A DNA stretch of 64,000 bases, taken from positions 160,001 to 224,000 of the forward strand of contig JAJYUZ010000002.1 of NCBI GenBank assembly GCA_021792255.1, in the 5' to 3' direction. The notes below the pieces were generated by a model. That model was not told the origin of the DNA. It saw nothing but the letters and a program-made list of their open reading frames with translations, and did not search any database. This DNA is from Thermoplasmata archaeon. GTDB taxonomy: Archaea; Thermoplasmatota; Thermoplasmata; Thermoplasmatales; GCA-001856825. Below are positions 33,307 through 60,717 of the stretch, one piece after another. Position 1 is the stretch's first letter, and every line of letters starts with the position of its first letter. Position numbers and translations under genes: made by a program.

Positions 33307-34038
33307 TCACTTATTTCTGATCTTCAGAAATTCCGAATAAAATTCAGGGATGCTTTCGTATTCGATTGGGTCTTCCGAGTCTGCCTGCATAAAGCCCTTG
33401 AGTCTAAGCTTGCATGAATCACAAACTCCACATGCCTTTTCTCCTCCCTTATAGCAAGACCAAGTGAGTTCTAGTGGTGTTTTCAACCTGATGGCAAGTC
33501 TTACTATATCTGCCTTGGAGTACCTAAGGAGTGGGGCCTCAACCTCGATGCTTCCACCCTCCACAGTCTTCTTGGTAGCCAGACTGAAAGTTTTATTGAT
33601 CGACTCAAAATATTCGGGTCTACAGTCTGGATAGCCAGAATAATCGAGTGAGTTGGCCCCTATGAAAATTTTTGATGAATCAGTGACCTCTGCAAGTCCC
33701 AGTGCTATCGAAAGCATTATCGTATTCCTTGCAGGAACATAGGTCACCGGTATCTCCTTACCTATGTCGTTGAGAGATTTTTCAGGAACCGAAATATCAT
33801 CGGTCAAAGCGCTTCCACCTATCATTCTCAGGTCCATTTTCATGATCTTGTGTTTGACCCTGTAGTAGTCCGCAATCTTTCTGGCTGACTCCAGCTCCTT
33901 GCTGTGTCGCTGCCCATAATCAAAAGACAGCGCCACTACTTCATAGCCTTGCGAAACAGCATAGGAAAGAAGAGTAGAACTGTCGAGTCCACCCGACAGC
34001 AGACTTACTGCTTTCTTATTTCCAGATCGATTTAGCAT
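33307..34038 (-). CDS. queC: 7-cyano-7-deazaguanine synthase
   Basis: SGGLDS, YGQRH, TYVPARN, YPDCR, TWSCY, CG.CDSC.LR. Confidence 0.96.
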   Translation of the reverse strand: MLNRSGNKKAVSLLSGGLDSSTLLSYAVSQGYEVVALSFDYGQRHSKELESARKIADYYRVKHKIMKMDLRMIGGSALTDDISVPEKSLNDIGKEIPVTYVPARNTIMLSIALGLAEVTDSSKIFIGANSLDYSGYPDCRPEYFESINKTFSLATKKTVEGGSIEVEAPLLRYSKADIVRLAIRLKTPLELTWSCYKGGEKACGVCDSCKLRLKGFMQADSEDPIEYESIPEFYSEFLKIRNK

Positions 34039-34504
34039 ACTGACCAGGTCCTTCGTGAACTTCTATTTCCACCTGCTCCACGTTCAGTCCTAGAGATTTG
34101 ACAAACTTGTCTAGAATATATTCGCTCAAGCACTCTGCCGTTGTGTCCTTCACCGGCAAAACTCTACACTCTTCCTCAGGGAAGCTGTACTTTTTACCTT
34201 CTAAGCTGACAGTAAGGTTGCCTTCTTTCCTTTCAAAGACTATTCCTCTTCTCTTCTCTGGGATGAGAACCCTGTGGTCAAGAAAATCCGCGATTTCTCT
34301 CAAATTAGACTTACCCTTTGTGAAGTCTAGAAAATAGGTCTTGTCATCCATCGCACCGATGATCTTGACAGAAATAGAATAGTCGTGGCCGTGAATCCTA
34401 GAGCATTTCCAGTCTCCCGGAATAAAGTGGGCTGAGGAAAATCTTATGTTTGAGTAATTCCCATCTATGAATATCTCCACGGCAGGGTATCTACATTTAC
34501 GCAA
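34016..34504 (-). CDS. queD: 6-carboxy-5,6,7,8-tetrahydropterin synthase
   Basis: FSSAH, CSRIHGH, LDH, TTAE; coupled to queC. Confidence 0.9.
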   Translation of the reverse strand: MRKCRYPAVEIFIDGNYSNIRFSSAHFIPGDWKCSRIHGHDYSISVKIIGAMDDKTYFLDFTKGKSNLREIADFLDHRVLIPEKRRGIVFERKEGNLTVSLEGKKYSFPEEECRVLPVKDTTAECLSEYILDKFVKSLGLNVEQVEIEVHEGPGQYAKSIWK

Positions 34505-34560
34505 AAATCCTTTGGGGTAGAGTCAGCAAGAATTATATGTACTGTGAGAGTTAAGAGGAT

Positions 34561-34902
34561 ATGACCAAAATACTCTACTTGGTTATGAGTGGAAAAGAAG
34601 CAGAACAGAAATTCGACATGGCGATCATCTCAGCTCTTAGAATGATCGAAAACAAGAGGGTAGAAAAGATGAAGCTATTGTTCTATGGGCCAAGTGAGAC
34701 GCTTCTCGCTCAAGTAACTGGCGAAAGAGCAGAAACGATAAAGAAGCTCATTGGTTACGGTGCAGTGGACTCTGCCTGCACTATGTTTGCCAAAAACATG
34801 AAGATAGAAAATGAACTGAATATTCTAGGGGTCCCTCTCGAAGCCTATGGACAGAGGTTAGCTGCCCTCCTAGGGGAGGGTTATATCCCGGTCTCATTCT
34901 GA
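34561..34902 (+). CDS. DsrE-like protein
   Basis: LLFYGPSE, SAC..FA and C-terminal GY..VSF pattern. Confidence 0.7.
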   Translation: MTKILYLVMSGKEAEQKFDMAIISALRMIENKRVEKMKLLFYGPSETLLAQVTGERAETIKKLIGYGAVDSACTMFAKNMKIENELNILGVPLEAYGQRLAALLGEGYIPVSF

Positions 34903-36530
34903 GACTCAATGTATTCTGGCTGCGATTGATCACCAATTGGAGGAATAAGCAGAAGACTGGTGTTAGAGGGCATCTCTCCTCTCTTCTCTCTAAAAGCGGA
35001 AAATATCACGTTCGGATAAAACTTCATTTTCTCCAGCATCCTCCCCCTTCTGTTTAGGTCAGAGTATTCGCACTCCACCGGGATTTTCCTGTCGTCTTTT
35101 ATGATCACCAGATCTGGGCGATGTCCATCATAATCTAGGCCTTCGTACACTTCATATCCCTTGCTTTTGAAAAAGAAGTAGGATCTGGTGATGAGGTACC
35201 TATGAAACAACGATTCGTTTCCTTTCACGTGTCTAGAACCGATCTTTTCGTAATACTCCATCTCAAGGTGCACTTTTCCATCTACGATCGTCGCTAGACC
35301 AAGCGAAACCAGATGGCTCAGGTAGGCTGGGTCTATGTTCTCGGGGAATTCCTGATCTACAAATTCCCTGCTCCCGTCAAAATCGTAGAACTCTTCAGAG
35401 ACCGAAAATTCCCTAGTCTGTTCTGCCAATCTTGTTGTTCCCGTAAACAAGCTCCCAGTTCTTGGCACAAGACAATTAAAGTGATAGAAGTCGGGAGCCC
35501 TCAGAATCCTGCCATCCCGTCTGAAAGTGTACGCGTCCTCATCAGAGAGCTGGAAAAGGAAGAAATTATGGACATTTGTCTTTATGCTGGAAGCTAGTGT
35601 CGGATCCAATCCCGAGAGCGACTGCGTGCTCATCAGCGCCCAGAGAGAGAACTTTCTGCCTTCGGTCACAATTCTCTGTGAAATATGAGGAGACAGGGTT
35701 TGGAACTCGTCCATTATCACCACTACATCCTTCATTCTCCTTAGAATAATATTGTTCCAAATCTTGTAGAGAAGCATAATGGAAAATGGTCTGGAAAGGG
35801 AAGAAGGAGAGTACTCCCCTGATAGTTCCACATAGAGCGTGCTGTCAAGTTTCGAAATGTCGTAAAAGTCCTCTCTTGATGAGAACATTCGTTTCGATAC
35901 TTCGTTTGAAATCAGCGGCAGTATCTTATTGACCGTAGAAGAGATGAAGTCGTACCCCTGATTGAATATTGAGAGGAATTCTGTCCTTTCGTCTGGTTCG
36001 AGAGATGAGGCAAAATCCTTCCTCTTGTAATAATTCAATAGCAGGTCTGCGAGGTCCTGTATTGTAGGGGTAACTTTGTACTTTAGCAGCAACCTGGTCA
36101 CGATGGTGAAGATCAACTCTATCCTAGGGCCCCACGTGCCTATAGAAAAGGCAGACTCACTTGAAAATATGTCTTTCAGAGTCTGAACGACCAGCTCCTC
36201 GTTTATCAGCCTCTCCCTTTCGTTCCGGTACGGCAGTACTGACATCAAATTGAATTTCAGGTATCCAGTGCGTACTCCAGAATAAGGTGACAGAGTTATG
36301 ACAGAAGAGTCAGGCTTCCCATATTTCCACAGCTCCCCGTGAGGATCGAACACGATAACTTTTTTTCCGTCTTCTTCATACAATCGAATCAACTGAACGA
36401 GCAGGTTGGACTTACCCGTTCCAGTCTTTCCAAGTATGAGAGAGTGATTTTCCAAAAATTCTGGAGGAAAGATTATTCTCTTCTCCTTAAGAGGGAATGG
36501 TATCCCAGATTCATAAGGCCAGTAATCCAT
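34881..36530 (-). CDS. HerA/VirB4/TraG-like (DUF87) ATPase with a C-terminal PD-(D/E)XK-like domain
   Basis: GKTGTGKS, FDPHGE, IMDEFQ, EGRKF, STQ; C-terminal ESLFH...GYEV...RPDL...VECE. GGGGTGA RBS favours the start at 36530. Confidence 0.8.
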   Translation of the reverse strand: MDYWPYESGIPFPLKEKRIIFPPEFLENHSLILGKTGTGKSNLLVQLIRLYEEDGKKVIVFDPHGELWKYGKPDSSVITLSPYSGVRTGYLKFNLMSVLPYRNERERLINEELVVQTLKDIFSSESAFSIGTWGPRIELIFTIVTRLLLKYKVTPTIQDLADLLLNYYKRKDFASSLEPDERTEFLSIFNQGYDFISSTVNKILPLISNEVSKRMFSSREDFYDISKLDSTLYVELSGEYSPSSLSRPFSIMLLYKIWNNIILRRMKDVVVIMDEFQTLSPHISQRIVTEGRKFSLWALMSTQSLSGLDPTLASSIKTNVHNFFLFQLSDEDAYTFRRDGRILRAPDFYHFNCLVPRTGSLFTGTTRLAEQTREFSVSEEFYDFDGSREFVDQEFPENIDPAYLSHLVSLGLATIVDGKVHLEMEYYEKIGSRHVKGNESLFHRYLITRSYFFFKSKGYEVYEGLDYDGHRPDLVIIKDDRKIPVECEYSDLNRRGRMLEKMKFYPNVIFSAFREKRGEMPSNTSLLLIPPIGDQSQPEYIESQNETGI

Positions 36531-37068
36531 TCTTATCACCCCCATTTATTAGAGAATACAACTCGAAGCTGGTCACTATCAGAGAATTGCCCTTCTTGAA
36601 TGTCAGGGACTGCTTTCCATCTTTGCTGGAATAGTCTCGTGCGAGGAATGGAGAAAACAGTCTGATTCTGTACAACACTCTCTTCGCCTTTCCCCCTAGT
36701 CTCTTTCTCTTGAAGGGATTCAGTGTGCGGTACCTCTCGACCTTCAATCGTATCTCATCTCCCTTAATCAATAAGATTGCCGTCTCAGTTAAAAAAGGAA
36801 AAACAGGATCAAAATAGAATTTCGGCTTGTTAAGCAGGAATATATTTTCTTTCCAGCGATCACTCAAGAAAGATCGTTCCATTTTGTTTCCCAGTTCCTC
36901 TCTAGCGTATCGAAGGATCTCAGCTTCTTTCCCGTCGTCGTTGATGAGTATCGTAAGATTCTCATTCTTCCGGATAGTCATTTCGGTTTCTCTGTTCACC
37001 AATATCAGGTTCAGAAGCGTCTGGAGATTGTCTCTGTCCTTGACGTATATCTTCCATTTCGAATACAT
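36511..37068 (-). CDS. Hypothetical basic protein in the ATPase operon
   Basis: GGAGGAGTG RBS; overlaps the ATPase start. Confidence 0.7.
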   Translation of the reverse strand: MYSKWKIYVKDRDNLQTLLNLILVNRETEMTIRKNENLTILINDDGKEAEILRYAREELGNKMERSFLSDRWKENIFLLNKPKFYFDPVFPFLTETAILLIKGDEIRLKVERYRTLNPFKRKRLGGKAKRVLYRIRLFSPFLARDYSSKDGKQSLTFKKGNSLIVTSFELYSLINGGDKNGLLAL

Positions 37069-37215
37069 TCAATTCACTCCTCCAGCACTGCCATCCGTCG
37101 AGATGGAACCTTCATCAAGCAATTCTATGTCCCTGCCAATTTTTCCGAAATTAGAATTGTAGGCAATTTCATTCTCTCCTACAAAAAAGTTGGTCAATGC
37201 TTCTTTCGTTTTCAT
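37069..37215 (-). CDS. Small 48-aa protein (not in the ORF track)
   Basis: GAGGTG RBS; MKTKEALTNFFVGENEIAYNSNFGKIGRDIELLDEGSISTDGSAGGVN*; stop directly abuts the next ATG. Confidence 0.6.
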   Translation of the reverse strand: MKTKEALTNFFVGENEIAYNSNFGKIGRDIELLDEGSISTDGSAGGVN

Positions 37216-37467
37216 AAAAACACCTCTAATCCATTTTCGACGATTCACTAATTTTCAAGAGTCTTCATCAAGGTTAAATAAGCCATTTGTCCGGATTCAA
37301 AGCTAAAAATCACACTATTCTCAAGCAGGCAATACGCACCGCTTTTGTCAGAAAACCTTAGTCCTATACACGAAAATGGATTACAAGATTGAATTCGACC
37401 CAGATATATAAGCTTTAACAGTTATAAGAATGGAAAGAAAATAAAATAATAAAAAATTAAGATGAGT

Positions 37468-37737
37468 TTACTTGTACTTTATCTTGGAAGACGCACTGAA
37501 GTGTACTTTGTTCTTGGAGGGGACCTTTATGATTTGCTTTGTCCTTGGATTCTTAGCATTCCTCGCCTTTGTCTGTTTCCTCGAGAAAATTCCGAATCCT
37601 GCTATCCTTACCTTCTGCCCCTTGTTTATGTTCGTCACAATAGCCTTGAAGGTTCCCCTAATTACTGACTCAGCACTTCTGACAGATACGCCGGAACTCT
37701 TGGCGATGTCTCTGGCAATCTCGTTTATTCCGACCAT
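37468..37737 (-). CDS. HU-family nucleoid protein (HTa-like)
   Basis: GQKVRIAGFGIF...ARNAKNPRT...IKVP...V.F.AS. Confidence 0.93.
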   Translation of the reverse strand: MVGINEIARDIAKSSGVSVRSAESVIRGTFKAIVTNINKGQKVRIAGFGIFSRKQTKARNAKNPRTKQIIKVPSKNKVHFSASSKIKYK

Positions 37738-37876
37738 ATTGAGAATATCTACATTTAATATATAAAGTTAGTGCTATTTTTAAAATCACGGCTGGTATGA
37801 GGAATATCCATTTTATATGAAATATCTTATAGAATACATCAAATATAAATAAGTAGGGTTTAAATACTCCAAGAGT

Positions 37877-38296
37877 CTAGTTTGACATCTTTTGGTGAGT
37901 GACCATTATGCAGATTCCATAGACTACATCGAGGTTTTTGGACAATGCTGTCTTGATTACGTCGGGGTTCTCTGCTCCAAGCTGAAGCCACACAGCCCTT
38001 GGATTCAGACTAGGGGCTTGAAGCACAACTTCTTTGGAAGCCTCCGGATTTCTGAAAATATCTACTATATCGATCTTTATGTCTTTTGGAATGTCTAATA
38101 TCGACGGATATGTTTTCTTTCCATAGATCTCGCTTACACTCGGGTTCACTGGTATTACATTATATCCTTTGTCGATTAGGTACTTTCCGACCTTATTTGA
38201 ATCCCTCTCGGGGTTGGGGGACATTCCGACCACTGCAATATTCTTGCTCTTTTCCAGTAGATCCTTGATCATAGCTGGCTTATCCAGAATCATCAA
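37877..38296 (-). CDS. CoA-binding protein (YccU-like)
   Basis: IAVVGMS.NP.R.S, PVNP, DIVDIFR, WLQLG, CI. Confidence 0.9.
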   Translation of the reverse strand: MMILDKPAMIKDLLEKSKNIAVVGMSPNPERDSNKVGKYLIDKGYNVIPVNPSVSEIYGKKTYPSILDIPKDIKIDIVDIFRNPEASKEVVLQAPSLNPRAVWLQLGAENPDVIKTALSKNLDVVYGICIMVTHQKMSN

Positions 38297-38343
38297 GTAC
38301 TAGATTAAAAATTTCAAATAAAGTTTTCCGAATTTGGACACCG

Positions 38344-39267
38344 TCAAGATGTCGAGAAATAGTCCGTATTCGTTTCTGCCTCTCTGAATAACTTCCCAAG
38401 TCTTCTGACTTCAGAAAGCTGGTAAAGTGAAGAAAAGGAGATGGTAACAGTAGAGCTTTCTTGTTCAAATTGAATTATGGCCGGTCCATTGTTTCTCCTA
38501 AAACCGAATTTTGTTTCACCTTCTTCGAACAGATCGAAAAAGTTCCCTCCATTTCTAAATTCATAGGTTGTGTGCTCGGTAGAAGCGTCTGGGTTGCCAA
38601 TGTCTATCCAGACAGCTCTTCTATTGTAGTCTTCTGAGAGCACAAAGATGGCATGAATTGTCCTATTATCCCTCCGAAAGATTCCTACGGAGTCCAGACA
38701 GAGATTCCCTTCACAGAATTTTCTAAAGGGAGGGGTCCAAGAAAGCCTACCGATACGCTCTTCTTCGAACCACTGCGGGTTTCCATTATTTGCCAAGAAC
38801 GAGCGCTTGTAGAACGGATAGTTTTTGAATCTCGCACTGATGTACGGAGCTACGAGGCTTTCGCTGAGTTTTCTGACATTAAGGCTGGTCTCCCCCTCAA
38901 TTTCGATTTGAGTCCCAAGAGAGAAAGAAGACGATGCCTCTTTTCCCTTGTAATTCTTCCCATAGAATATCACTGCGTCAGTAGTATCGGTACTGGCCAA
39001 GATGGAATATGAAGAGACGAAAGAATCCATAAGGCTCTTTGGAAAACCTGGATAAAACCAGTCAAGAAAGAATTCCTTTACTCTGAGTTTTTCGTTCCCA
39101 ATTGTGCACTCGAATCTTAACGTCGCCCACTTTCTCCCAGGTTCCCTATAAGTCGAGTTATGTACTTCCAGTTCTTCGGGGAGATAGATAAGGAATGGTG
39201 CCTTTTCTTGGAGTTTTTTAAAATCACCGATTCGAATGATCTCGTCTAGCATCGCTCTCGTTTGCAA
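38344..39267 (-). CDS. Hypothetical protein
   Basis: 307-aa ORF rich in aromatic residues; no family recognised. Confidence 0.7.
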   Translation of the reverse strand: MQTRAMLDEIIRIGDFKKLQEKAPFLIYLPEELEVHNSTYREPGRKWATLRFECTIGNEKLRVKEFFLDWFYPGFPKSLMDSFVSSYSILASTDTTDAVIFYGKNYKGKEASSSFSLGTQIEIEGETSLNVRKLSESLVAPYISARFKNYPFYKRSFLANNGNPQWFEEERIGRLSWTPPFRKFCEGNLCLDSVGIFRRDNRTIHAIFVLSEDYNRRAVWIDIGNPDASTEHTTYEFRNGGNFFDLFEEGETKFGFRRNNGPAIIQFEQESSTVTISFSSLYQLSEVRRLGKLFREAETNTDYFSTS

Positions 39268-39323
39268 AATAACTGCATACTTAAACTGTTGGGTTTTTCA
39301 TTCTTCCATCCAACTAGAGGTCT

Positions 39324-40256
39324 CTATCTCTTGAGATTGGCAATCATGTCCTTTGTTGTCGCCTTGAAGTCGTAGTTTGGATGGAAGTCCCACTCACTAA
39401 CGGCCGCAGAAGCATCGAGTGACCCTGGCCAAGAATCTGCTATTTTTTGCCTGAAATCCGGTCTATAAGTCACTTCGAAAGAGGGGTAGTAATTCCTGAG
39501 CTCCATTTCTAATTGTTTTGGGGTCATAGAAAAAGACGAGACGTTAAAATCCGTCCTGTGTTTCAATCTCGTTTCGTCTGCTTCAGCAAGCCTTAGAAGG
39601 CAATCGAGAGCGTCTGGCATATACATCATTGGCAGCCTGGTATCCTCTCTCAGGAAACATTGGTAGCTCTTACCCTTAACGGCCTCCATTATCATCTCTA
39701 TAGAATAATCCGTGGTCCCTCCGCCCGGAGGTGTTTTATAACTTATAAGTCCAGGAAATCGCAGACCTCTCGCATTCAACCCGAACCTTGCATGATAATA
39801 ATTGCCCAGATGTTCCGCCATCAGTTTTGTGATTCCGTACATTGTCACGGGCCTAGCTATAGTCTCTATTGGAACGTTCTCCTTTGGCGTATCAGGACCA
39901 AATATTCCTATCGAGCTCGGGGTAATCACAAGTTTCACTCTACTCTTGATGGAGGACTCTAAGATATCGTAAAGTCCAGAGATATTCACCTTGTACGCGA
40001 GCTCAGGGTTCTTCTCTCCATTCGCGGACAGAACAGCGGCAAGATGGAAGATGGTATCTATCTTGTATTTATCGATCGCTAGGTCGACCGAAGCTCTATC
40101 AGTCACGTCTAACTTGAGGAATCTCGAATCTGCAGAGTTTGAGCGAATGTCTGAAGGAATCACTCTATCTCTTCCGAAAACATCAGAGAGAAATGGAACC
40201 AGTTCGCTTCCAATTTGACCACCAGCACCGGTGACGAGTATTTTTTCGAATGTCAT
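39324..40256 (-). CDS. tdh: L-threonine 3-dehydrogenase (SDR/epimerase type)
   Basis: GAGGQIG, HLAAVLSA.GE, YGITK, PGGGTTDY, LPMMYMPD, RQ.IADSWP; divergent from kbl. Confidence 0.88.
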   Translation of the reverse strand: MTFEKILVTGAGGQIGSELVPFLSDVFGRDRVIPSDIRSNSADSRFLKLDVTDRASVDLAIDKYKIDTIFHLAAVLSANGEKNPELAYKVNISGLYDILESSIKSRVKLVITPSSIGIFGPDTPKENVPIETIARPVTMYGITKLMAEHLGNYYHARFGLNARGLRFPGLISYKTPPGGGTTDYSIEMIMEAVKGKSYQCFLREDTRLPMMYMPDALDCLLRLAEADETRLKHRTDFNVSSFSMTPKQLEMELRNYYPSFEVTYRPDFRQKIADSWPGSLDASAAVSEWDFHPNYDFKATTKDMIANLKR

Positions 40257-40429
40257 TCCCCTAAACAGTCACGCGAAAATAAAAAATATTTCGTACCGCG
40301 CATGAATACCCCAACCTCTATCGATCTCTCGTCTCTGAGAATCCTTCACGGACGTATTTATTCAGCCGTCCCAATCAAATGGGAAGAGGTCCTAAGCAAA
40401 CTATTTGATGACTGAGAATATTTGGAGCC

Positions 40430-41608: not shown

Positions 41609-41615
41609 TCCAGAA

Positions 41616-45995: not shown

Positions 45996-46186
45996 TGTAC
46001 CCCGGAATTAACAAGGAGAATCATTATCATCCCCTCTGACCTTTCCGGGGATGTGGGACTTCTTCTGGCCTTGAGTTCACAGATAGGCGACACGCCATAA
46101 CTCACTAAGGGGCCCAAAAATCCCTATAGTTCCCCGTCGTCCAGCATCTATCACTTATCAAGCGCTATTCCATAGGGAACGAACTA
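45996..46186 (-). ncRNA. Three-hairpin box H/ACA guide RNA
   Basis: Three stems ending in ATA, ACA and ACA; hairpins 1 and 3 have K-loops and pockets 14 nt from the box. Confidence 0.8.
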
Positions 46187-46193
46187 AAATATA

Positions 46194-46595
46194 TTATCGA
46201 CTCTTAACTTTTTCGAATCTAGCTATGACTCTGGTCTTGAGTCCCCCTCTAGCCTTAAACTCGCCAACAACTGCCATAAACCTTGGGGAAACGCTTTTCA
46301 CAAGATCTTCCAGAATCTTGTTTACTGCGTTCTCCTGAAAAATTCCGACGTTCCTGTACCTGTGCAGGTAGAGCTTGAATGACTTCAATTCGATTATCTT
46401 CTTGTCGGGGAGATAGTGCACTGTTATCTTCCCAAAATCAGGCATACCTGTCTTCGGGCAGATTGAGGTGAACTCGTCAGTCTCTATGGTTACGTGAGTT
46501 GAATTCTCTTGGTAGGGGAAAATAACCGAATCGATTTTCCCGAGGTCAAGATTCTTGATGCTCTTCTGCAAGTTCTCGTACTCTGACACTCTCAA
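46194..46595 (-). CDS. queF: NADPH-dependent preQ0 reductase, type I QueF
   Basis: FTSICP..G.PDF (catalytic Cys/Asp), intact QueF motif ELKSFKLY, FQE, RGG. Confidence 0.88.
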   Translation of the reverse strand: MRVSEYENLQKSIKNLDLGKIDSVIFPYQENSTHVTIETDEFTSICPKTGMPDFGKITVHYLPDKKIIELKSFKLYLHRYRNVGIFQENAVNKILEDLVKSVSPRFMAVVGEFKARGGLKTRVIARFEKVKSR

Positions 46596-46726: not shown

Positions 46727-47641
46727 ATGAAATCTCGTGTGGTCCTGATCGCACTCTTGCTAGTGGTTGCGGGATTGGTGATTTTCATCTACCACGAAAA
46801 CTACAGCAAGCAGAATACCCCTACTGGTTCCCATGTCTATCTCGGTGCAGTGTACTCAGGTCAGACCAAGTACACGAACTATATTTCTGCAAACGTTGAT
46901 TTCGGGAATGGCGCCAATCTAAAGAACAACATCTACTACATCGTACTCTCAATATGGGACAGCAATCATAGCTACGACCAACTTGGGATCTCCTCCCTTT
47001 ACGGAAAGTTTTATTCCACTTACTCTTACACTGAGACTGTTAATGGAAGCATTAAGTACATATTCGATCCACACTGGTTTCAGATAAAGCCCGGTCTTCA
47101 CTCTCTCTCGATGTATGTGAACAATGGAAATGTCGTTTTCAAGTTCGACACTTACTCATATACTGCATATACCGGAGGATATAATTTTGCAATTGAGACG
47201 AATGAGAAGATCGGGAACCATTCATTCAGCGGCCTCACTATTTACGAGGAGATATACGGTTTCAACAAAACCCTTCCTTCCATCTCGTTCAACTTTTCCC
47301 AGGTGTTATTCGGGACGACAGGATATCCAACTGGGTACGTGACGCAGTGGTACCAGTTCTATCACAACCTGACGGATAATTACACGTCACTCGTGTATAT
47401 GAGGTCGGATACAGTAAACATATACAACGCTCCTTCACTGACGCTGAAAATTACGGTACAAAATCTTCCGACTTCTGCAAATCTGATAATTTCTGACCTG
47501 AACTTAACGATACCCGGAAGCGGACAGTATCCGATCAATCTACTGGAAGGGAACTACACAATCTATCTTGTCTATCAGGGGCAGACGAAGTCATACAATG
47601 TGACCTTGAGTTCAAACACTGATTACACGATAACCGCATGA
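46727..47641 (+). CDS. Membrane-anchored extracellular protein (Tyr/Asn/Thr rich)
   Basis: N-terminal TM, many N-X-S/T sequons. Confidence 0.75.
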   Translation: MKSRVVLIALLLVVAGLVIFIYHENYSKQNTPTGSHVYLGAVYSGQTKYTNYISANVDFGNGANLKNNIYYIVLSIWDSNHSYDQLGISSLYGKFYSTYSYTETVNGSIKYIFDPHWFQIKPGLHSLSMYVNNGNVVFKFDTYSYTAYTGGYNFAIETNEKIGNHSFSGLTIYEEIYGFNKTLPSISFNFSQVLFGTTGYPTGYVTQWYQFYHNLTDNYTSLVYMRSDTVNIYNAPSLTLKITVQNLPTSANLIISDLNLTIPGSGQYPINLLEGNYTIYLVYQGQTKSYNVTLSSNTDYTITA

Positions 47642-51371: not shown

Positions 51372-51428
51372 TTTTAAACCTCGAGTTTTTATATCAGAAT
51401 TTCTAGGATATATCGATAAAAAAAGAAG

Positions 51429-52385: not shown

Positions 52386-53219
52386 GTCTCTGAGTTTCTG
52401 TATCCTCACTTCTGTTGACGGATGAGTTGAAAACATTTTTTTTACTGTCGAGCCTCCGAGAGGATTGACGATGAAGAGACTTGTGGTTGCAGGATTTGCG
52501 TTCTGCATCGGCTTCCTGCTGTTCCACATTTCAAGTTTTGTCAGGGCACTAATTAATCCTTCGGAGGAGTTGTTGATCTTGGCTCCGTGTTCATCTGCGT
52601 ACAGTTCTCTCTGTCTGGATATAGCCAACTGTAACATCAGAGCACCTACCGCAGCTACCAGCAGGATGACCATCACTATTATGTCCTGACCACCTCTCCT
52701 TCCACCGAACAGAGCATTGAATCCAAATATCCTTGCTCCTATCATCAGTGCTGAAGCGATGGTTGCAGCTACAGTTACCACTAGAATATCGTTATGTTTG
52801 ATGTGTCCGAGCTCGTGGCCAATAACTCCTCTCAGCTCTTTCTCGTTCAACACGTTGAGTATAGTCCTGGTGAAGACTATGTACGCATTTTTCTTGTTTC
52901 GACCAGTGGCAAAAGCGTTGGGAACAGGTATGTCCGCAATGGCAATCTTTGGCATGGGAAGTTCAGCATTTTGGGATATGTCTCTCACAATTGCAAATAG
53001 TTTGGGTTCTTCATTCTCTTGGATTAGTTTCGCGCGGTAACTCCACATCACAAGTCTGTAAGAGAAAAAATAGGAAACAAGATTCATCAGTGCTGCAAAG
53101 CAAGCAAAAACGATCAACCAACCGAGCACATCTCCTACGAAGTACCCTATAATCAATCCCGCAAGTACGAATATGAGGAAGAGAAACATGAATGCTATTA
53201 CCAATCTAAATCTGCTCAC
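52374..53219 (-). CDS. htpX: Membrane zinc protease HtpX (M48)
   Basis: PNAFATGR, HELGH, SRQRE..AD, FSTHP. Confidence 0.94.
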   Translation of the reverse strand: MSRFRLVIAFMFLFLIFVLAGLIIGYFVGDVLGWLIVFACFAALMNLVSYFFSYRLVMWSYRAKLIQENEEPKLFAIVRDISQNAELPMPKIAIADIPVPNAFATGRNKKNAYIVFTRTILNVLNEKELRGVIGHELGHIKHNDILVVTVAATIASALMIGARIFGFNALFGGRRGGQDIIVMVILLVAAVGALMLQLAISRQRELYADEHGAKINNSSEGLISALTKLEMWNSRKPMQNANPATTSLFIVNPLGGSTVKKMFSTHPSTEVRIQKLRDLGI

Positions 53220-53375
53220 GGAATCCGAAGCGAAAATATGGATTTAACCGTTTTCGATATACTTTTTGCTTTAAACATAAAATATATAAAATATAAATTT
53301 TCCAGCAAGGAAAAATCATAACAACTGTTTAATAGTAATTGTAATTACCAGACATCTTTAGGGGGTTATACCAAG

Positions 53376-56279
53376 ATGCTTAATAAATCTGGAAAAACAG
53401 CAGCTCTGTTCGTCATCACTTTAATGGTGATGGGAGGACTCTTGGGAGCGGCATTCGGCCAAGTACAGGGAGCAGAAAAAGTGTCATTTAGTTTTACGGT
53501 GCTGGGGAATGGACAAGCCCCGGCGACTGGAGTTAATGTTGAACTCGAGAGCGCGAATGGAGTAGTTTTAGCAAGCACCACGTCGAGCCCCAGTGTAACA
53601 TTCCAGGCATATCCTGGAAGCTACATAGTTTACATTCCGAGCCAGTTTGTTTCATCTGGATCAATAGTCTACAATGCGTACCAAGCCAGCGTGAGTGTGA
53701 AGGACAATGGAACCGTATATGACGGAAATTCCGTGTTTCAGTATGCAAATGTAGGTTATTTGTCAGCGACCTCTTATGTGTACGCCACAGTGAAAGGAAT
53801 CACTTCTGCTCAGATAACTTCGGTCTACCTCGAATTGCCAAATGGTCTTGATATGATGGCAACGAAGGTCAATGCATCTAATCCAAATTCTGGATATGCT
53901 GTGACCACCATTTCGGGATCGCAGATCCTGACGGTGGAATACACCTCCACATCAAGGGCATTTTATTCGATACAACTGACCAACATATCCTCTAGCAAGA
54001 ACAACAGCGTTGTCGCTAACATCTCGTCTTCACAGAATGTCCAGGGCACAGTAGTTTCGACCAAGGGAACATCTGTAAATAGAGTAGAAGTATCTATTTA
54101 CCAGTCTGGAGTTTTACTCTCTGCAGACGTGTTCTCGAACGGCTATTACTATCTTTCACTTTCACCCGGAACCTACAATCTTGTGATATCATCGCCGGGT
54201 TATCTGCCAACCGTACGCTCTGTCACCACGACTTCTGGGGGAACAGCTACTTTTCAAACGATTACACTCACTCCTTCCAATGTCGAGCAACTACAGTCAA
54301 TTTCTTTCGGTTCTAACTTCCAGAACGTTACAATAAGCGGAGGAGTCACTTTGACAAACGCAACAGTTCTACCATTTCTCCCATATTCAAACGCAGGATC
54401 ACTCTACAATCAAATGCACTTGAACAATCTGAGCCCGGGCGAACTCTGGGCATTACTAAACGTGACCGTTCCGTACTCTACGGCGAACACGGTATTGTAC
54501 AACAATTACTCATACAACTCTACTGGAATTCACACAACATTCGCTGTTGGAACTGGCGGTACATACAAGTTCAATTATACTGCTACTTACTACCAATCAA
54601 AGGTGGCGGTTCAGAGTTATAGTACCATCAGGATATATGTCAACAAGAATGACAACAATACTACTGCACTTACATACATATCTCAACTCAGCATTCCTGC
54701 CTCTTATCAGAGGGCAAACATTGTGAGTTCGAGCCTAGCAACGGTCTCCGGCTACTCCGGAACAATCAGCATAACTAACAGCAGTTTCAATGGGTTCCTG
54801 ACCATCAAGATTGCCCCTCAATCAAAGCCAATACTGAAATTATCTCAAATCTCTGCGACTTGGAATAATTCTTTTGAATCGACTATATCATCCAACACTT
54901 CCTCCAACTTTACCCTTGTAGTTCCGGTAGGTAAACAGGTCACTCTGAATGCGAGCAAAGTTCCCTACGATAGCGTCCTGGGTACAGACAACTACGCCGA
55001 AATGAACTTCACATGGACGTTCGGAACCTCTACCACAATTTATGGGTACAACATCTCGTACACATTCACGAACGGATCTCATCTCGTTTCACTTACGGTG
55101 ACAAGCTCAAGCGGTGTAAAGAATGAAACAAATCTGACCATTATAGGTGATTCGCTTAATCCCCAATTCAACCTGAGGGTAATACAGAACGGTGGACTTA
55201 AGATGAATCAGACGACAACTCACTCAGTATCATATGTGCTGTGGGTAAACCAGACTCAAACCGTTTACTTCAATTCCGTAAAATCTAAGGATTTACTTCC
55301 TTCTGGTCAATCGACGGGAATACCAATTTCTGTGACATGGGTCATAGCTGGTTCCAGCGAGACGGGAACGAACGTATCTTATTCTTTCGGTATCCCGACA
55401 TTCAATTCAACGGTTGAACACGCGTACGCCACAGTCGAGAATGGAGTTGGAAGCACCTTTAATGTCAGCCTGACGATACACGTCAATGATACAACACCTC
55501 CAGTTGTCGCACTCCAGATATTCAATGCTTCTTCTGGCAAAGTTACTAGTTCAACCAAGCAAGATCAGAACGTCACTCTGAATGCATCCAAGAGCTACGC
55601 GCCAAATGGCGGGCACATAGTTTCCTATACGTGGTACTTTACCTATTCAAACGGAACCGTTGCCAAGTCCAACGTGGATTACAAAGTTTACAGCTCATCT
55701 TCTAACAATTCCTCTCTGACTATTGCATTCCTTCAATACGGCAATTTTGAAATAAAAGTAAAAGCAGTAGATCAGTCAAACAACACGGGAACCGCGTCTC
55801 AGAGTCTGAGCGTGATTGCAGTTGGTCCAGAAATAGAGATAATGAACATAACGTATCCCAAGAGCTATGTCGAGGGATCTTCCTCGGTCTTGAAGTTCGA
55901 TCTGAAGAACGTTGGAATTGAGTCTGCTACGAGCTACTACATAACCGTAAAGATCGCAGGAAAGACTGTCAAGAACGAGACGTTCACCAATCTCTCCTCG
56001 AACCAGTCTACTAATGTATCGGTGACGTTTGCTCCTCCGAGCTCTGGAAGCTATTCTATGGTCATGAGTGTACATGCACTAAATGAGCCATCATTCTTCA
56101 ACACTAACACCTCCGTAACAAAAGCGATTTCAGTGGCGCAAGCCGCATGGAAACTGCCAGCCCTGGTTGGAGGTATAGTGGTTGCAATCGGAGTACTTTC
56201 GTTCGTCTACTACGACGTCACGGTCAGAAGAAAGAGGCCCAAGGAAGTTAAGCAGCCAAAGAAGCAGCTAAAAGTCTAA
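53376..56279 (+). CDS. Large cell-surface glycoprotein with beta-sandwich (carboxypeptidase-regulatory/PKD/CARDB-like) domains
   Basis: Signal peptide, LNASKS...SYTW.F PKD-like motif, KNVG CARDB-like motif, C-terminal TM with basic tail. Confidence 0.8.
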   Translation: MLNKSGKTAALFVITLMVMGGLLGAAFGQVQGAEKVSFSFTVLGNGQAPATGVNVELESANGVVLASTTSSPSVTFQAYPGSYIVYIPSQFVSSGSIVYNAYQASVSVKDNGTVYDGNSVFQYANVGYLSATSYVYATVKGITSAQITSVYLELPNGLDMMATKVNASNPNSGYAVTTISGSQILTVEYTSTSRAFYSIQLTNISSSKNNSVVANISSSQNVQGTVVSTKGTSVNRVEVSIYQSGVLLSADVFSNGYYYLSLSPGTYNLVISSPGYLPTVRSVTTTSGGTATFQTITLTPSNVEQLQSISFGSNFQNVTISGGVTLTNATVLPFLPYSNAGSLYNQMHLNNLSPGELWALLNVTVPYSTANTVLYNNYSYNSTGIHTTFAVGTGGTYKFNYTATYYQSKVAVQSYSTIRIYVNKNDNNTTALTYISQLSIPASYQRANIVSSSLATVSGYSGTISITNSSFNGFLTIKIAPQSKPILKLSQISATWNNSFESTISSNTSSNFTLVVPVGKQVTLNASKVPYDSVLGTDNYAEMNFTWTFGTSTTIYGYNISYTFTNGSHLVSLTVTSSSGVKNETNLTIIGDSLNPQFNLRVIQNGGLKMNQTTTHSVSYVLWVNQTQTVYFNSVKSKDLLPSGQSTGIPISVTWVIAGSSETGTNVSYSFGIPTFNSTVEHAYATVENGVGSTFNVSLTIHVNDTTPPVVALQIFNASSGKVTSSTKQDQNVTLNASKSYAPNGGHIVSYTWYFTYSNGTVAKSNVDYKVYSSSSNNSSLTIAFLQYGNFEIKVKAVDQSNNTGTASQSLSVIAVGPEIEIMNITYPKSYVEGSSSVLKFDLKNVGIESATSYYITVKIAGKTVKNETFTNLSSNQSTNVSVTFAPPSSGSYSMVMSVHALNEPSFFNTNTSVTKAISVAQAAWKLPALVGGIVVAIGVLSFVYYDVTVRRKRPKEVKQPKKQLKV

Positions 56280-56291
56280 CCTTTTTTTACT

Positions 56292-57890
56292 TTATATTTT
56301 ATCAGATGCTTGGATACCAAGCATCTGAAACAATTCTTCCATTGTTTTTGCATAGGTCCTGACTATCTCCACTCTCTTTTGGAAATTCTCCCCGCTGTCA
56401 ATTACTGGACAGTCCCTGTAGAACTGGTTGAACGCTCCAGCTAGTTCGAATGAGTATCTGGCTATCTTGTCTGGTCTGGAATGGGTCGCGGCTTCTTCTA
56501 CTATTTCTGGATAAATAGAAATTACCCTGAGCAAGTTGCTTTCCGGCTCGTTGAACTTCCAGACAATTTCTTCTTGCCTGTCAAGTTTTGAGAGTATGGA
56601 TTTGGCCCTTGCGTAGGCATACATTACGAAAGGAGCGGCATCTCCATCAAAATTTAGGGCATCCTTCCAATCGAAAGTGACCGGTTTATCTGGTGAATAC
56701 CTGATGATATTGTACCTGACGGCTGCGACTCCAACCTTGTTCGATATTTCTTCGACCTCTTCCTCGGACAGGTCGGTTCTCCGCTTCAGGATCTCTTCCT
56801 TGGCTAGATTCACTGCTTCTTCTATCAGGTCTCTGACATACACGACATTACCCTTCCTTGTGCTCATTTTGCCCTCCTTCGTGGTTATGTACGAGTAGAA
56901 TAACGCTCCAACGTTGTCGACACCAAGGAGGTCCATTGCGAACTCCATCTTCTTGAAGTAAGATTTATGGTCCTCTCCGAGAACAGCTATAGAATTGTCG
57001 AATTCTGAAGACTTCTTCAAGTGATGAGCAATATCTCTGGTGAAATAAACCGATGTCCCATTTGATCGAAGCAAGTACATCTTGCCCTGTTTTGATTCCA
57101 GATACTTGGCACCGTTATCGTCCTTTAATAGGGGGGTCAATCTTGCAATAATCTCCCCGACGGATCCGTTTAGAATGAACTCGCTCTCCCATACAAAGAA
57201 ATCAAATTTGATGGATAGTCTCTCCAGGTCATTCAGTACATCACCTAGGAACACTTCCAGTTTATCTTTCGACTCCTTCAAGAATCTTTTATCTCCAGAC
57301 TCTGCCTTGACCATGAATTCTTCGACTCTTGCCTTGTACTTATCAAAATCTTCGTAAACCTTCCGGTACGATTCCGTATAATTTTCCATTCCATAGAGTT
57401 CGACTCCTAGCAGGAGAGCTTCAACCTGCGTTCCTATGTCATTTACATAGTATTCAGTCGTAACGTCATATCCAAATTTCGCAAGGATTCTTGAGAACGT
57501 ATCTCCAATTATGGAATTTCTGACTCTACCTATGTGCAGCGGTCCCGTTGGATTTGCACTCGTGTGTTCGACCAGGATCTTATCCTTCTTCTTTTCAAAC
57601 TGGAATAGCTCGTTATTCCCTCCCTCTTCAAGTACCGTTTTACAAAATTCCTGATCATCGTATTTCACATTGACGAATTTTCCAACTGAAGAAAAAGTCA
57701 CATAACGATCGCTGAGGGAATTGATTTCCTCCACATCCAGACTGACTTTGCTTTTCTGAAAGTCAAATGAAAGATCACCGAAGTTCTTCTGTGGCCTATA
57801 AGTCCGATAATTCTTTTCCATAGATCGACTTGACAAGAATGAATCCATCTTCTCTCTTGCAATAGCATCGAACTTCTGGTATGGTTTCAT
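56292..57890 (-). CDS. argS: Arginine--tRNA ligase
   Basis: VEHTSANPTGPLHIG, YYVND.G.Q, KMSTR.G, Y.YAR, FY..CPV. Confidence 0.96.
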   Translation of the reverse strand: MKPYQKFDAIAREKMDSFLSSRSMEKNYRTYRPQKNFGDLSFDFQKSKVSLDVEEINSLSDRYVTFSSVGKFVNVKYDDQEFCKTVLEEGGNNELFQFEKKKDKILVEHTSANPTGPLHIGRVRNSIIGDTFSRILAKFGYDVTTEYYVNDIGTQVEALLLGVELYGMENYTESYRKVYEDFDKYKARVEEFMVKAESGDKRFLKESKDKLEVFLGDVLNDLERLSIKFDFFVWESEFILNGSVGEIIARLTPLLKDDNGAKYLESKQGKMYLLRSNGTSVYFTRDIAHHLKKSSEFDNSIAVLGEDHKSYFKKMEFAMDLLGVDNVGALFYSYITTKEGKMSTRKGNVVYVRDLIEEAVNLAKEEILKRRTDLSEEEVEEISNKVGVAAVRYNIIRYSPDKPVTFDWKDALNFDGDAAPFVMYAYARAKSILSKLDRQEEIVWKFNEPESNLLRVISIYPEIVEEAATHSRPDKIARYSFELAGAFNQFYRDCPVIDSGENFQKRVEIVRTYAKTMEELFQMLGIQASDKI

Positions 57891-57913
57891 TTTAGAGGGA
57901 TATTTATGGCATA

Positions 57914-58756
57914 TTAAAATGCATTCAGGTTCGTCTGGCTGTCCTTTCTAACGATCTTAATGCCCATGTACTTCTGAAACTCTGCCGCATTGACGGCAGC
58001 TTTAGCCTGAGCGTGATTGTTGAAATATACGAACACATCGTCTCCCATCGTTCTCACCCTTTCGACCCAAGGGACGAGTTCTTCTTCAGAGTACAGATAG
58101 TCATACTTGTTCAGCCTCCCCTTAAGTTCCCCTTTCCCATACCAAAGGTCATTGTTACGTCCGTGAAACCTGACGTAGGAGAACGATGACGTCGGGTAGT
58201 AAAAGAAGGGGAGCCCTGGAGAATCCACACTTACCAGGGCAACGTTGTATTTCTTGAGCAAACTAAGGAAACCCGGTAGTATGTTATTTGCGAGAAAATT
58301 CTTGTTCCTAATCTCAACCGAGAGCCTGTAGTCGGAATGGATAGAAATGAACAATTTTTCCAATCTTTCCAGGACTTGTTCGTCTCTCAAAGGATCAAGG
58401 AAAGGAGAGAGTTGAAGTAGCGCAGATCCAAGAAAACCAGAATTCCGTATCGGAAGGATCACCTTTGTGACGAATTCTTTTGCGGTTTCAATGGACTTGT
58501 CCGTAATGCCTTCCTGGTCGTGTGTCACTTCTCTGGGAAACTTCAGAGAATAGAGAAAGTCCTCCTTCCCCTGAATCTTGGATATCCATGAATTCACTGT
58601 CTTATCTCCAGGGAATGAGTAATATGTCGAGTCTATCTCAACAGAGTTGAAGAATTTGTAATAGTAAAGCAGGTACTTGCTCTCTTCCATTCCTTTGGGG
58701 TAGAACGTCTCTTTCCAATCCTCATACTGGAAACCAGAGCATCCCAGATATAGCAT
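57914..58756 (-). CDS. DUF72 (YecE-like TIM-barrel) protein
   Basis: GCSGF.Y.DW, VEIDSTYY, VEIR, YVRFHGR, Y.Y.YS..EL, YFNNH. Confidence 0.93.
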   Translation of the reverse strand: MLYLGCSGFQYEDWKETFYPKGMEESKYLLYYYKFFNSVEIDSTYYSFPGDKTVNSWISKIQGKEDFLYSLKFPREVTHDQEGITDKSIETAKEFVTKVILPIRNSGFLGSALLQLSPFLDPLRDEQVLERLEKLFISIHSDYRLSVEIRNKNFLANNILPGFLSLLKKYNVALVSVDSPGLPFFYYPTSSFSYVRFHGRNNDLWYGKGELKGRLNKYDYLYSEEELVPWVERVRTMGDDVFVYFNNHAQAKAAVNAAEFQKYMGIKIVRKDSQTNLNAF

Positions 58757-58839
58757 TTCATTTTAATATTCAAACTCGAAATTAAATTTTTCTATATAGC
58801 CTTAGGAAAACTTTTATTGCAACCTATTATTATTAAAGC

Positions 58840-59070
58840 ATGAAAAAGGTAGACCTTAGCAAATTGGACTACGATATATCCTTCAAGATCAAGATGGAGG
58901 CCTACCTATATGTTGAAGCGGACAAGATGCTGGAGGCTGGAAAGGGAGATCCGAAGAAGCTTGGAAGGTACATGAGGAAGAGAATAGAAATTATTGAGGA
59001 GCTACTGAAAATAGGCAGACCGTTTAAACTCGTGGAAGGAAAGGAGAGTCTTCTGGAAGTGAGCAAATGA
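58840..59070 (+). CDS. Small hypothetical protein
   Basis: TATA-like CTTTTAT upstream; ATGA coupling to the next gene. Confidence 0.7.
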   Translation: MKKVDLSKLDYDISFKIKMEAYLYVEADKMLEAGKGDPKKLGRYMRKRIEIIEELLKIGRPFKLVEGKESLLEVSK

Positions 59071-59606
59071 ACTTCATAAGCGTCTCCGAAGTGATGTCCC
59101 GGAATCCTATAAGGGTCGAATCATCCGTGACCGCAGAGGAGGGGGCTAAAATGATGGCAAAAAAGGGGATAAGTTCCCTACTGATTGAGGAAGAAAGAAA
59201 AATAATTGGCATAGTGACGGAAAGGGATATAGTAACGAAAATAGCTGCGAACGGACTATCTGCCGGTGAAATAAAGCTAAAGGAAATAATGAGCTCTCCT
59301 CTAGTTCATGTAGAAGGAGACAGTCCTCTTGAAACTGCAGCCGAACTGATGTGGAAGAGGAAAATTAGAAGACTACCCGTGGTAATTAACAACGAAATTG
59401 TAGGCATCCTTACGGAAAATGATATAGTCAGAATATCTCCGGGTCTGATCGAGATAACAAGGGGGATATTAGATAGCAGGAATCAGGGCGTTGTGAAAGG
59501 CATCCACGGAGTGTGCGATTCCTGCAATGAATTTTCGGAGAATCTTGTATACAAGGCAGGAAACTATTATTGCGAACGCTGTTACTCTGAAAAGGGCACT
59601 ATGTAA
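59067..59606 (+). CDS. CBS-pair protein with C-terminal zinc ribbon
   Basis: Two CBS motifs (GIVTERD, GILTEND), then CDSC and CERC. Confidence 0.9.
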   Translation: MNFISVSEVMSRNPIRVESSVTAEEGAKMMAKKGISSLLIEEERKIIGIVTERDIVTKIAANGLSAGEIKLKEIMSSPLVHVEGDSPLETAAELMWKRKIRRLPVVINNEIVGILTENDIVRISPGLIEITRGILDSRNQGVVKGIHGVCDSCNEFSENLVYKAGNYYCERCYSEKGTM

Positions 59607-59637
59607 AGATATTTTATCAAGATGACATATTGAACAG

Positions 59638-60717
59638 GTGCAAGCAAGAGCCGAGCTAGATCTATCAAGAGGGAAGGTGGAGCTTCCACTCTTTCTACCA
59701 GTTGCAACTCGAGGTTTCGTCAAGGCAACCCCGATGCAAAAAATCAATGAGATGAACATAAAGGCGCTCATATCCAATTCCGTTCATCTGACAATTTCGC
59801 CGGGATTGGAGACTCTGGAGAAGACTGAAGGGATAAATGGATATACGGGTTTTAAAGGCAGTTATTTCACTGACTCCGGGGGTTTTCAGATACTGAGAAA
59901 GGAGTTAGTTAAGGTAGAAAGGGATGGGATCCTATTCAGAGATAGGAAATCTGGAAAAGCCATAAGAGTGACGCCTGAGGTCAGTTCTGAAATTCAAAGC
60001 AAGATAAGATCTGATGTAGCAATGATGCTTGATGATTGTCCTCCCTACGGCGCAGAAACCAAAAGATATTCTCAGTCAGTGAAGAGGACCTATGAATGGG
60101 GAAAGATATTCTCTTCACTTAAAGCTCACAATCAGAAAAGATTCGGTATCATCCAAGGAGGATTTGAAGGAGAACTGAGGTCTGAGAGTGCAAGATTGAT
60201 GACTTCCTTAGAATTTGATGGGTTTGCGATAGGAGGGTTGAAGATAGGCGAGCCTAAGGAATTCACTGACAGAGTTCTTGCAAAGACAATTCCTCTGATT
60301 CCAAAGGAATATCCAGTTTATCTTATGGGAGTTGGAGATCCTCTCTCCATAGTTGAATATACCAAGGCAGGAATAGACATTTTTGATTCGACCTATCCTA
60401 CGAGAAATGCCAGACATGGATTTGCGTTGACCAATGGTGGTCCAGTCAATTTAAAGAATGCTAAACACTCTAACGACTTTCAACCGATAGAAAGTGGTTG
60501 TTCCTGTGAAACTTGCACTTTCTACGACAAGTCGATGCTGAGGGAACTGCACAAGAATGAGGATCCTTCTTTTCAATACTTGATGACTATCCATAATCTG
60601 GACTTTATGCAGAGATTCATGGAATCAGTCCGAAATGATACTGAAAAGGCGTGGTCAATTGCCAAGAATTTCAGCAAAGTCAATAACTCAGAAGTCAATT
60701 ACGACAAAGTTGGGTAG
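59638..60717 (+). CDS. tgt: Bacterial-type tRNA-guanine transglycosylase
   Basis: FLPVAT, TDSGGFQ, LDDCP, FGIIQGG, IGGLKIGE, YLMGVG, DIFD..PTRNARHG, CxCxxC..HN; no PUA domain. Confidence 0.88.
   Translation: MQARAELDLSRGKVELPLFLPVATRGFVKATPMQKINEMNIKALISNSVHLTISPGLETLEKTEGINGYTGFKGSYFTDSGGFQILRKELVKVERDGILFRDRKSGKAIRVTPEVSSEIQSKIRSDVAMMLDDCPPYGAETKRYSQSVKRTYEWGKIFSSLKAHNQKRFGIIQGGFEGELRSESARLMTSLEFDGFAIGGLKIGEPKEFTDRVLAKTIPLIPKEYPVYLMGVGDPLSIVEYTKAGIDIFDSTYPTRNARHGFALTNGGPVNLKNAKHSNDFQPIESGCSCETCTFYDKSMLRELHKNEDPSFQYLMTIHNLDFMQRFMESVRNDTEKAWSIAKNFSKVNNSEVNYDKVG

Follow-up and report, generated by a model that had tools for sequence, protein, structure and literature searches.

Genes for a predicted de novo queuosine pathway in an acid-mine Thermoplasmata archaeon that also carries archaeosine genes

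Results

Queuosine-pathway genes within the window

The subject of this study is a stretch of 64,000 nucleotides from the genome of an acidophilic Thermoplasmata archaeon from an acid mine (GenBank assembly GCA_021792255.1, contig JAJYUZ010000002.1, positions 160,001 to 224,000), hereafter called the window, and the genes in it for 7-deazaguanine modification of tRNA. The genome, here G000, amounts to 1.59 Mb in 11 contigs and is estimated to be 93.55% complete with 0.46% contamination. A preliminary description of the window had placed queD and queC, queF and the gene for a bacterial-type tRNA-guanine transglycosylase (TGT) between positions 33307 and 60717, and open reading frames (ORFs) were found exactly at these positions. 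Their products are predicted to take part in the synthesis of 7-cyano-7-deazaguanine (preQ0), its reduction to 7-aminomethyl-7-deazaguanine (preQ1) and the insertion of preQ1 into tRNA on the way to queuosine (Q).

For profile matches, the NCBIfam equivalog cut-offs were used as the criterion of presence, and Pfam was used for domains. The queC gene (33307..34038, minus strand) encodes a preQ0 synthase of 243 amino acids, with 219.9 bits to TIGR00364 (cut-off 150.3) and 253.7 bits to PF06508, and its translation contains the SGGLDSS P-loop and a four-cysteine cluster at the C-terminus. Upstream of queC, and overlapping it by 23 bases, lies a queD-like gene (34016..34504, minus strand) for a 6-carboxytetrahydropterin synthase of 162 amino acids, which matches PF01242 (PTPS) with 69.3 bits and carries the sequence CSRIHGH, an instance of the CxxxHGH motif that we take to be a mark of QueD. 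The queF gene (46194..46595, minus strand) encodes a one-domain (YkvM-type) NADPH-dependent preQ0 reductase of 133 amino acids, with 139 bits to TIGR03139 (cut-off 86.9), and the tgt gene (59638..60717, plus strand) a bacterial-type tRNA-guanine(34) transglycosylase of 359 amino acids, with 330 bits to TIGR00430 (cut-off 306.75). Three of the four window proteins (QueC, QueF and TGT) exceed their NCBIfam cut-offs, and QueD does not.

The sole Pfam domain of the window TGT is PF01702, and no C-terminal ArcTGT domains are present. The protein was aligned with the Thermotoga maritima Tgt (2ash; 268 bits) and the Zymomonas mobilis Tgt (about 240 bits), and the segments TDSGGFQ, LDDC, GGL-K-IGE, DIFDS, CSCETC and IHN all fall on catalytic or zinc-site residues. 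In the Z. mobilis enzyme we take the catalytic aspartates to be D102, D156 and D280. The Asp of FDS is kept in all 21 full-length TGTs of the family to which the window belongs, and Leu231 and the Glu of GGLxxGE are also retained in the family enzyme. The preliminary description had pointed to a grouping with ArcTGT or DpdA as evidence that would speak against a Q-type enzyme. Both identities were rejected, since the window protein stays far under the cut-off of either model (ArcTGT, 116.7 bits against a cut-off of 350; DpdA, 22.3 bits with NF041059 against a cut-off of 200).

QueF was aligned with the Bacillus subtilis enzyme (4f8b; 90.7 bits). It keeps the catalytic Cys55 (EFTSICPKTG; EFTSICPKTGMPDF), Asp62 (PDF) and the equivalent of Glu97 (Glu of FQE), together with the sequence ELKSFKLY at the place of the NADPH-binding QueF motif, for which we assume the wording E(S/L)K(S/A)hK(L/Y)(Y/F/W). 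QueF-L, the crenarchaeal archaeosine amidinotransferase (5jyx), has the T-fold and the catalytic Cys in common with the window QueF, and the genome of the window has ArcS-type archaeosine genes elsewhere. The QueF-L identity was rejected, because the window protein reached only 25.9 bits against 5jyx and contains the QueF motif, from which QueF-L is presumably free. As far as a sequence allows, the conserved NADPH-binding motif thus argues against an amidinotransferase, a role that the preliminary description had kept in sight.

Pathway genes elsewhere in the genome and the tRNA substrates

Genes outside the window were sought by whole-genome searches followed by scans of ORFs. From the list of genes that the preliminary description had proposed to look for, queA, queG, queE and arcTGT were recovered, together with mptA and an ArcS-like gene; searches of this 93.55%-complete genome gave no QueH, no classical FolE and no YhhQ/QPTR transporter, the FolE search matching only QueF itself. 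QueA is encoded on contig 11 (302 bits to TIGR00113, cut-off 267.45; 230.8 bits against the T. maritima QueA) and QueG on the window's own contig (238.2 bits to TIGR00276, cut-off 200), and both genes are intact. Two 4Fe-4S motifs of the CxxCxxCxxxCP type in QueG (CGKCTKCIESCP and CDICNNVCP) align with those of the B. subtilis QueG (5d08). The names preQ(1) synthase and QueG are already attached by NCBI to such proteins in Thermoplasmata metagenome-assembled genomes (MAGs). MptA was matched with 298.5 bits (cut-off 220).

For the archaeosine branch, the genome encodes an ArcTGT (432 bits, cut-off 350) with C2 (PF14810) and PUA (PF01472) domains and an ArcS-like protein with DUF5591 and PUA domains, the latter at 249 and 222 bits, under the cut-offs of 600 and 440. 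Both proteins are in line with the suggestion that the Q-type genes might operate alongside archaeosine. The other suggestion of the preliminary description, that the pathway might stop at preQ1, does not agree with the scores of QueA and QueG and with their retention in 22 and 25 genomes, respectively, of the 25 in the family. Because QueA and QueG are present, the predicted end product is full queuosine and not preQ1.

QueE (348 amino acids; contig C6:318913-319959 of G000, plus strand; locus L005:988-2034) is matched by its profile in two stretches around an insert of about 138 residues between Trp36 and Cys175, which lies within the CxxxCxxC radical S-adenosylmethionine (SAM) cluster motif (CNLRCSW/CDT, the slash marking the insert). 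Relatives without the insert are 210 amino acids long, are 72-87% identical in the flanks and read CNLRC(E/T)W-CD(S/T)KY at this site. The insert contains the intein blocks TPEH and SHN/C and gives weak matches to Hint domains. A QueE from a distant Thermoplasmata genome is likewise interrupted at this site, by an insert with Cys as its first residue. QueE should be inactive before splicing of this mini-intein, since the +1 Cys serves as a ligand of the cluster.

The preliminary description had proposed to check the tRNAs for Asp, Asn, His and Tyr for U33-G34-U35. All four GUN tRNAs, tRNA-His(GUG), tRNA-Asp(GUC), tRNA-Asn(GUU) and tRNA-Tyr(GUA), were found to read C32-U33-G34-U35. The gene for tRNA-Tyr(GUA), a predicted Q substrate, contains an intron of 29 bases at 37/38 (C3:160300-160401, minus strand), and the insertion at G34 must therefore be ordered relative to splicing. 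A second intron, of 66 bases at 39/40, was detected in the tRNA-Trp gene (C3:54699-54840, minus strand).

Conservation within the family and the class

The family of the window was surveyed as 25 species-level genomes from 4 genera, 6 of which are at least 90% complete. QueG was detected over cut-off in 25/25 genomes, QueF in 23/25, QueA in 22/25 and the Q-type TGT in 20/25 (21/25 at E <= 1e-50), and each of the four is present in all six of the more complete genomes. QueH was detected in none of the 25. The distance between queF and tgt on one contig is 11-14 kb in several relatives, as in the window. This conservation of the gene set across the family in practice rules out a chimeric contig, to which the preliminary description had drawn attention.

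For the class, an even sample of 201 Thermoplasmata genomes, G000 included, was examined. The number of genomes with a match over cut-off was 51 for the Q-type TGT, 48 for QueA, 47 for QueH and 37 for the one-domain QueF, so that within this class the pathway is not the rarity that it had been supposed to be. QueG, for which 10 candidates per genome were scored, was over cut-off in 4/201, namely G000 and three genomes of f18. Within the window's order, the Q-type TGT is present in 3/3 genomes of family f2 and 2/2 of f4 and in 0/19 of f3. The queA and tgt genes are adjacent in many genomes of the class and stand on different contigs in the genome of the window. The tallies include one unpublished genome, G098, which is without a Q-type TGT and bears on no claim other than the count of five f14 genomes, itself among them, that show the weak QueA-like match described below.

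The f18 genomes in which QueG is over cut-off, G068, G171 and G185, belong to the 4 of 24 genomes of that family without a QueH match, which suggests that QueG and QueH replace each other within f18. A QueA-like paralogue with scores of about 110-154 bits, under the QueA cut-off, was observed in genomes without a Q-type TGT (f3, 5/19; f11, 6/10; f14, 5/23; f26, 3/6), examples being G195:C13:33200-34168, G100:C7:22481-23497 and G182:C9:62905-63930.

Relationships of TGT, QueF and QueG

All trees were quick and unrooted, with support given only by the Shimodaira-Hasegawa-like approximate likelihood ratio test (SH-aLRT). The bacterial TGT rows were the best matches to the window protein among stretches with two motifs, a sample biased to the query. 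Among species-representative genomes, 80 relatives of the window TGT were named. The sole close one (62% identity) belongs to a Thermoplasmata MAG of the window's family; below it come Methanoperedens at 41-44% and then bacteria and other archaea at 34-43%. In the first tree (92 sequences; 1 of 93 rows, L129, was dropped for having no ORF with the motif), a branch with an SH-aLRT support of 99 separates all 31 archaeal rows (Thermoplasmatota, Methanoperedens, Hydrothermarchaeota, Woesearchaeota, Pacearchaeota, Nanoarchaeia and one Thaumarchaeote) from all 61 bacterial rows. The window lineage, on a stem of 1.56, adjoins f2 and f4 in this tree with a support of 86, not starred. For the second tree, 6 further sequences of the family were added and the bacterial rows were reduced from 61 to 31. 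Archaea and bacteria are split in the same way (support 100), the family stem measures 1.7, and the attachment to f2 and f4 holds there only under a midpoint root.

The QueF tree was built from 134 columns with the top matches to the query as bacterial rows, leaving out the loci L044, L200 and L201, which the motif filter had missed. A branch with a support of 97 separates the QueF of the family from those of f2, f13 and f16, and the family groups with bacterial and f18 rows. By identity, the 11 named relatives of QueF at 60-86% all bear names in Thermoplasmat-, and the next named matches, at 52-56%, are from Omnitrophota, Margulisbacteria and Cloacimonadota. Relatives of QueG at 48-66% all belong to the family's own group (5 named, all in Thermoplasmat-), and the identity then falls to 36-43%, where the 6 named matches are all bacterial.

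The history of the pathway thus looks mosaic. To judge from these biased and unrooted quick trees, TGT, and probably QueA, would be an old archaeal resident, and QueG and perhaps QueF would have come separately. QueG appears to have taken the place of the QueH used by the other families of the class, and the QueF of the family seems nearer to bacterial QueFs than to that of the sister family.

Gene neighborhoods and source samples

The que genes of the window are dispersed among unrelated neighbors and do not form a single island, in agreement with the preliminary description. The queD-like and queC genes are flanked by genes for TFS and a HerA-like ATPase, queF by one for a pyridoxal phosphate-dependent enzyme, and tgt by one for a CBS-domain protein on its upstream side and by a tRNA-Cys(GCA) gene at its stop (60712..60783, plus strand; ARAGORN). 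This tRNA is a neighbor and not a substrate; its gene takes in the last 6 bases of the tgt ORF, including the stop codon. Four ORFs beside the que genes gave no Pfam match at E <= 0.001 (32839-33234, minus strand; 34561-34902, plus; 46727-47641, plus; 61007-61726, minus), and those at 46727-47641 and 61007-61726 are rich in Asn, Ser and Thr and resemble secreted or membrane proteins.

Near-identical DNA was found in 10 DNA runs from three studies, on metagenomes of mine drainage, sediment and mine tailings, and no RNA run was listed for the window among the runs with near-identical sequence. Run X7 carries no flag as a possible source, and one of its contigs spans 58448-60730 with zero differences and connects the CBS gene with tgt. 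The listed contig matches leave 46030-46460, in the region of queF, uncovered, and bridging is claimed for the tgt region only.

Discussion

Probable synthesis of queuosine and archaeosine from one pool of preQ0

The genes for the pathway are present and intact, and their products keep the catalytic residues. The tRNAs to be modified are encoded as well, and the gene set is kept in a family of 25 genomes. The central statement of the preliminary description, that a Thermoplasmata archaeon possesses QueF and a G34-type TGT, is thus borne out by profile scores and alignments. We consider it likely that this archaeon makes queuosine de novo at position 34 of tRNA-Asp, tRNA-Asn, tRNA-His and tRNA-Tyr in addition to archaeosine at G15, both being supplied from one pool of preQ0. 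All the reactions, and the modified nucleoside that they would yield, are inferred from sequence. In the proposed route, GTP would be converted to preQ0 by MptA, QueD, QueE (active only once its mini-intein is spliced) and QueC. From preQ0 one branch would lead to archaeosine, with ArcTGT inserting preQ0 at G15 and the ArcS-like protein amidating it. In the other branch, QueF would reduce preQ0 to preQ1 with NADPH, the bacterial-type TGT would exchange G34 for preQ1 in the tRNAs with U33-G34-U35, QueA would add the epoxycyclopentanediol from SAM, and QueG, with cobalamin and Fe-S clusters, would reduce epoxyqueuosine to Q.

Several observations weigh against this interpretation. The QueD-like protein reaches 60.2 bits with TIGR03367, under the cut-off of 89.25. 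The first residue of the QueE insert, for which splicing is needed, is Thr in the three aligned QueEs of the family type, and not Cys or Ser. In QueF, the His96 of the triad is replaced by Gln, and FQE is read in 23/23 QueFs of the family, so that the "canonical type I QueF" of the preliminary description is accurate for the one-domain form and the score above cut-off and has to be qualified at this position. In a 2026 review (PMC13740343), His96 is described as contacting preQ0 through its backbone amide, with an auxiliary proton-relay role for the side chain, and the H96A/F and H229A variants are given as still active. The same position is occupied by Tyr in the QueF of family f13 and in a QueF from Cloacimonadota. 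Since the variants are active and Tyr occurs naturally, the change from His96 to Gln is a qualifier and not a disqualifier. CobS was not found in the 93.55%-complete genome, and the source of cobalamin for QueG is therefore in question; the control genome of B. subtilis also gave no CobS match, yet its QueG match was over cut-off.

The remaining points concern TGT. At the position of Ala232 of the Z. mobilis enzyme, 22/22 sequences of the family carry Lys (GGLKIGE), one of them from the named record 'Thermoplasmata archaeon isolate KMA_Bin16', whereas Ser is found in the T. maritima Tgt and Ser or Cys in the other TGTs of the class. According to PMC5699537, the pair Leu231/Ala232 sets the preference between preQ1 and preQ0. 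In ArcTGT the pair is Val/Val. The Lys may thus alter the substrate specificity, and the designation of the protein as a bacterial-type TGT, well founded in the TIGR00430 match and in the catalytic and zinc residues, has to be qualified in this respect. Between the TGTs of the family and those of the rest of the class the identity is no higher than 37-43%, and the stem branch of the family is as long as 1.56-1.7 changes per column in the quick trees.

Alternative explanations

The same features of TGT could mean that the enzyme of this family has changed its job and now handles preQ0 or another 7-deazaguanine, another position or another nucleic acid, the other genes keeping their older roles. 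The very long family-wide stem, the fixed Lys beside the specificity-determining Leu231 and the TIGR00430 scores of 310-340 bits, compared with 448-465 in the sister families f2 and f4, are all in line with such a change. We nevertheless regard it as unlikely, since the enzyme retains its full set of catalytic and zinc residues together with Leu231 and the Glu of GGLxxGE, its score with the DpdA model is as low as 22.3 bits, and a separate ArcTGT already covers position 15. Moreover, QueF, QueA and QueG, which act before or after the insertion of preQ1 at position 34, co-occur with this TGT.

That the pathway ends at preQ1-tRNA or at epoxyqueuosine appears improbable. QueG needs cobalamin, and the missing CobS match would fit an end at epoxyqueuosine, but QueA and QueG are intact and above the equivalog cut-offs, and their retention in 22/25 and 25/25 family genomes is not expected of unused genes.

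A use of the deazaguanine genes in DNA modification or defence (Dpd-like), and not in tRNA modification, has a precedent, as bacteria and phages are known to draw on preQ0 pathways for modifying DNA (PMC5699537). In the present genome, however, the TGT passes the Q-type equivalog and remains far from DpdA (22.3 bits, cut-off 200), and the genes are scattered without a clustered dpd-like island, which leaves this explanation very improbable. QueA and QueG, furthermore, act on tRNA-bound intermediates.

Bacterial contamination of an archaeal bin, or a chimeric assembly, would fit the bacterial type of the four enzymes and the fact that, outside the family, the closest named relatives of QueG and QueF come from bacteria. 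This explanation can in practice be excluded, because the genes lie on contigs of 413 kb and 163 kb with a uniform GC content of 0.441 among archaeal genes, recur in up to 25/25 family genomes with conserved spacing, belong to a genome with a contamination estimate of 0.46%, have their tgt neighborhood reproduced by contigs of other studies, and include a TGT on the archaeal side of a split (SH-aLRT 99-100) from 61 and then 31 bacterial sequences.

Origin and significance

With queuosine at position 34 and archaeosine at G15 as the preferred interpretation, a more far-reaching history can be considered. Q34 might be an old and mainly vertical archaeal trait, and not the outcome of scattered, recent imports from bacteria; the archaeal Q-type TGTs stand together, separate from every bacterial TGT sampled. 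In this history the family of the window would have rebuilt the pathway by a bacterial QueG in exchange for QueH, a different QueF and, on a very long branch, a TGT pocket changed from Ala232 to Lys. We regard this history as possible but doubtful. If it is true, the reshaped pocket of TGT might handle a different 7-deazaguanine or tune the sharing of preQ0 between archaeosine and queuosine, and the intein in the Fe-S motif of QueE could serve as a switch on the common supply of preQ0.

Queuosine genes of archaea have already been reported, and in its essentials the finding has precedents. Queuosine continues to be assigned to Bacteria and Eukarya, and archaeosine to Archaea, in reviews and in a 2026 preprint. 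No open-literature paper describing a queuosine pathway in Thermoplasmata was found, most subscription journals and supplements lying outside the search. In the present sample, the full route is encoded by a quarter of the genomes of one archaeal class, and the family of the window encodes the de novo route. Some archaea therefore probably have the two 7-deazaguanine modifications together on the same tRNAs, with a single pool of preQ0 to be divided between them. Specific to the family, as predicted from its sequences, are QueG in place of QueH, Lys232 in TGT, Gln96 in QueF and the QueE intein, natural variants that are of enzymological interest.

Comparison with known systems

The closest parallel is the de novo Q pathway of B. 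subtilis (FolE/FolE2, QueD, QueE, QueC, QueF, Tgt, QueA and QueG), for which a homologue of every step is present here. The likeness extends to QueC, QueF, Tgt, QueA and QueG, all over the equivalog cut-offs, to a QueF of the YkvM type and to a last step by a cobalamin-dependent QueG. The archaeal system differs from the bacterial pathway in that the host also keeps ArcTGT and an ArcS-like protein, in the use of MptA at the first step, in the mini-intein of QueE, the Lys of TGT and the Gln of QueF, and in the arrangement of the genes, which are scattered in this genome without queA-tgt or queCDEF operons.

In archaea, co-localized genes for QueA, a QueH-like protein and Tgt were described by Castelle et al. 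in 2021, with a figure that names DPANN and Methanosarcinales; the main text does not name Thermoplasmata for the Q pathway, and the supplementary tables may list them (PMC8204110). Those sets consist of bacterial-type Q genes in archaea, as here, but they show the last three steps co-localized and include QueH, whereas the window genome has dispersed genes, QueG, and QueF with a full pathway to preQ0. In our quick trees the window TGT stands on the same side of the split between bacteria and archaea as the TGTs of Woesearchaeota, Pacearchaeota, Nanoarchaeia and Methanoperedens.

Other families of Thermoplasmata have the same pathway, but with QueH (47/201 genomes of the class sample) where the family of the window has QueG (25/25). 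In many of them queA and tgt form adjacent pairs, in contrast to the separate contigs on which the two genes are found in the genome of the window.

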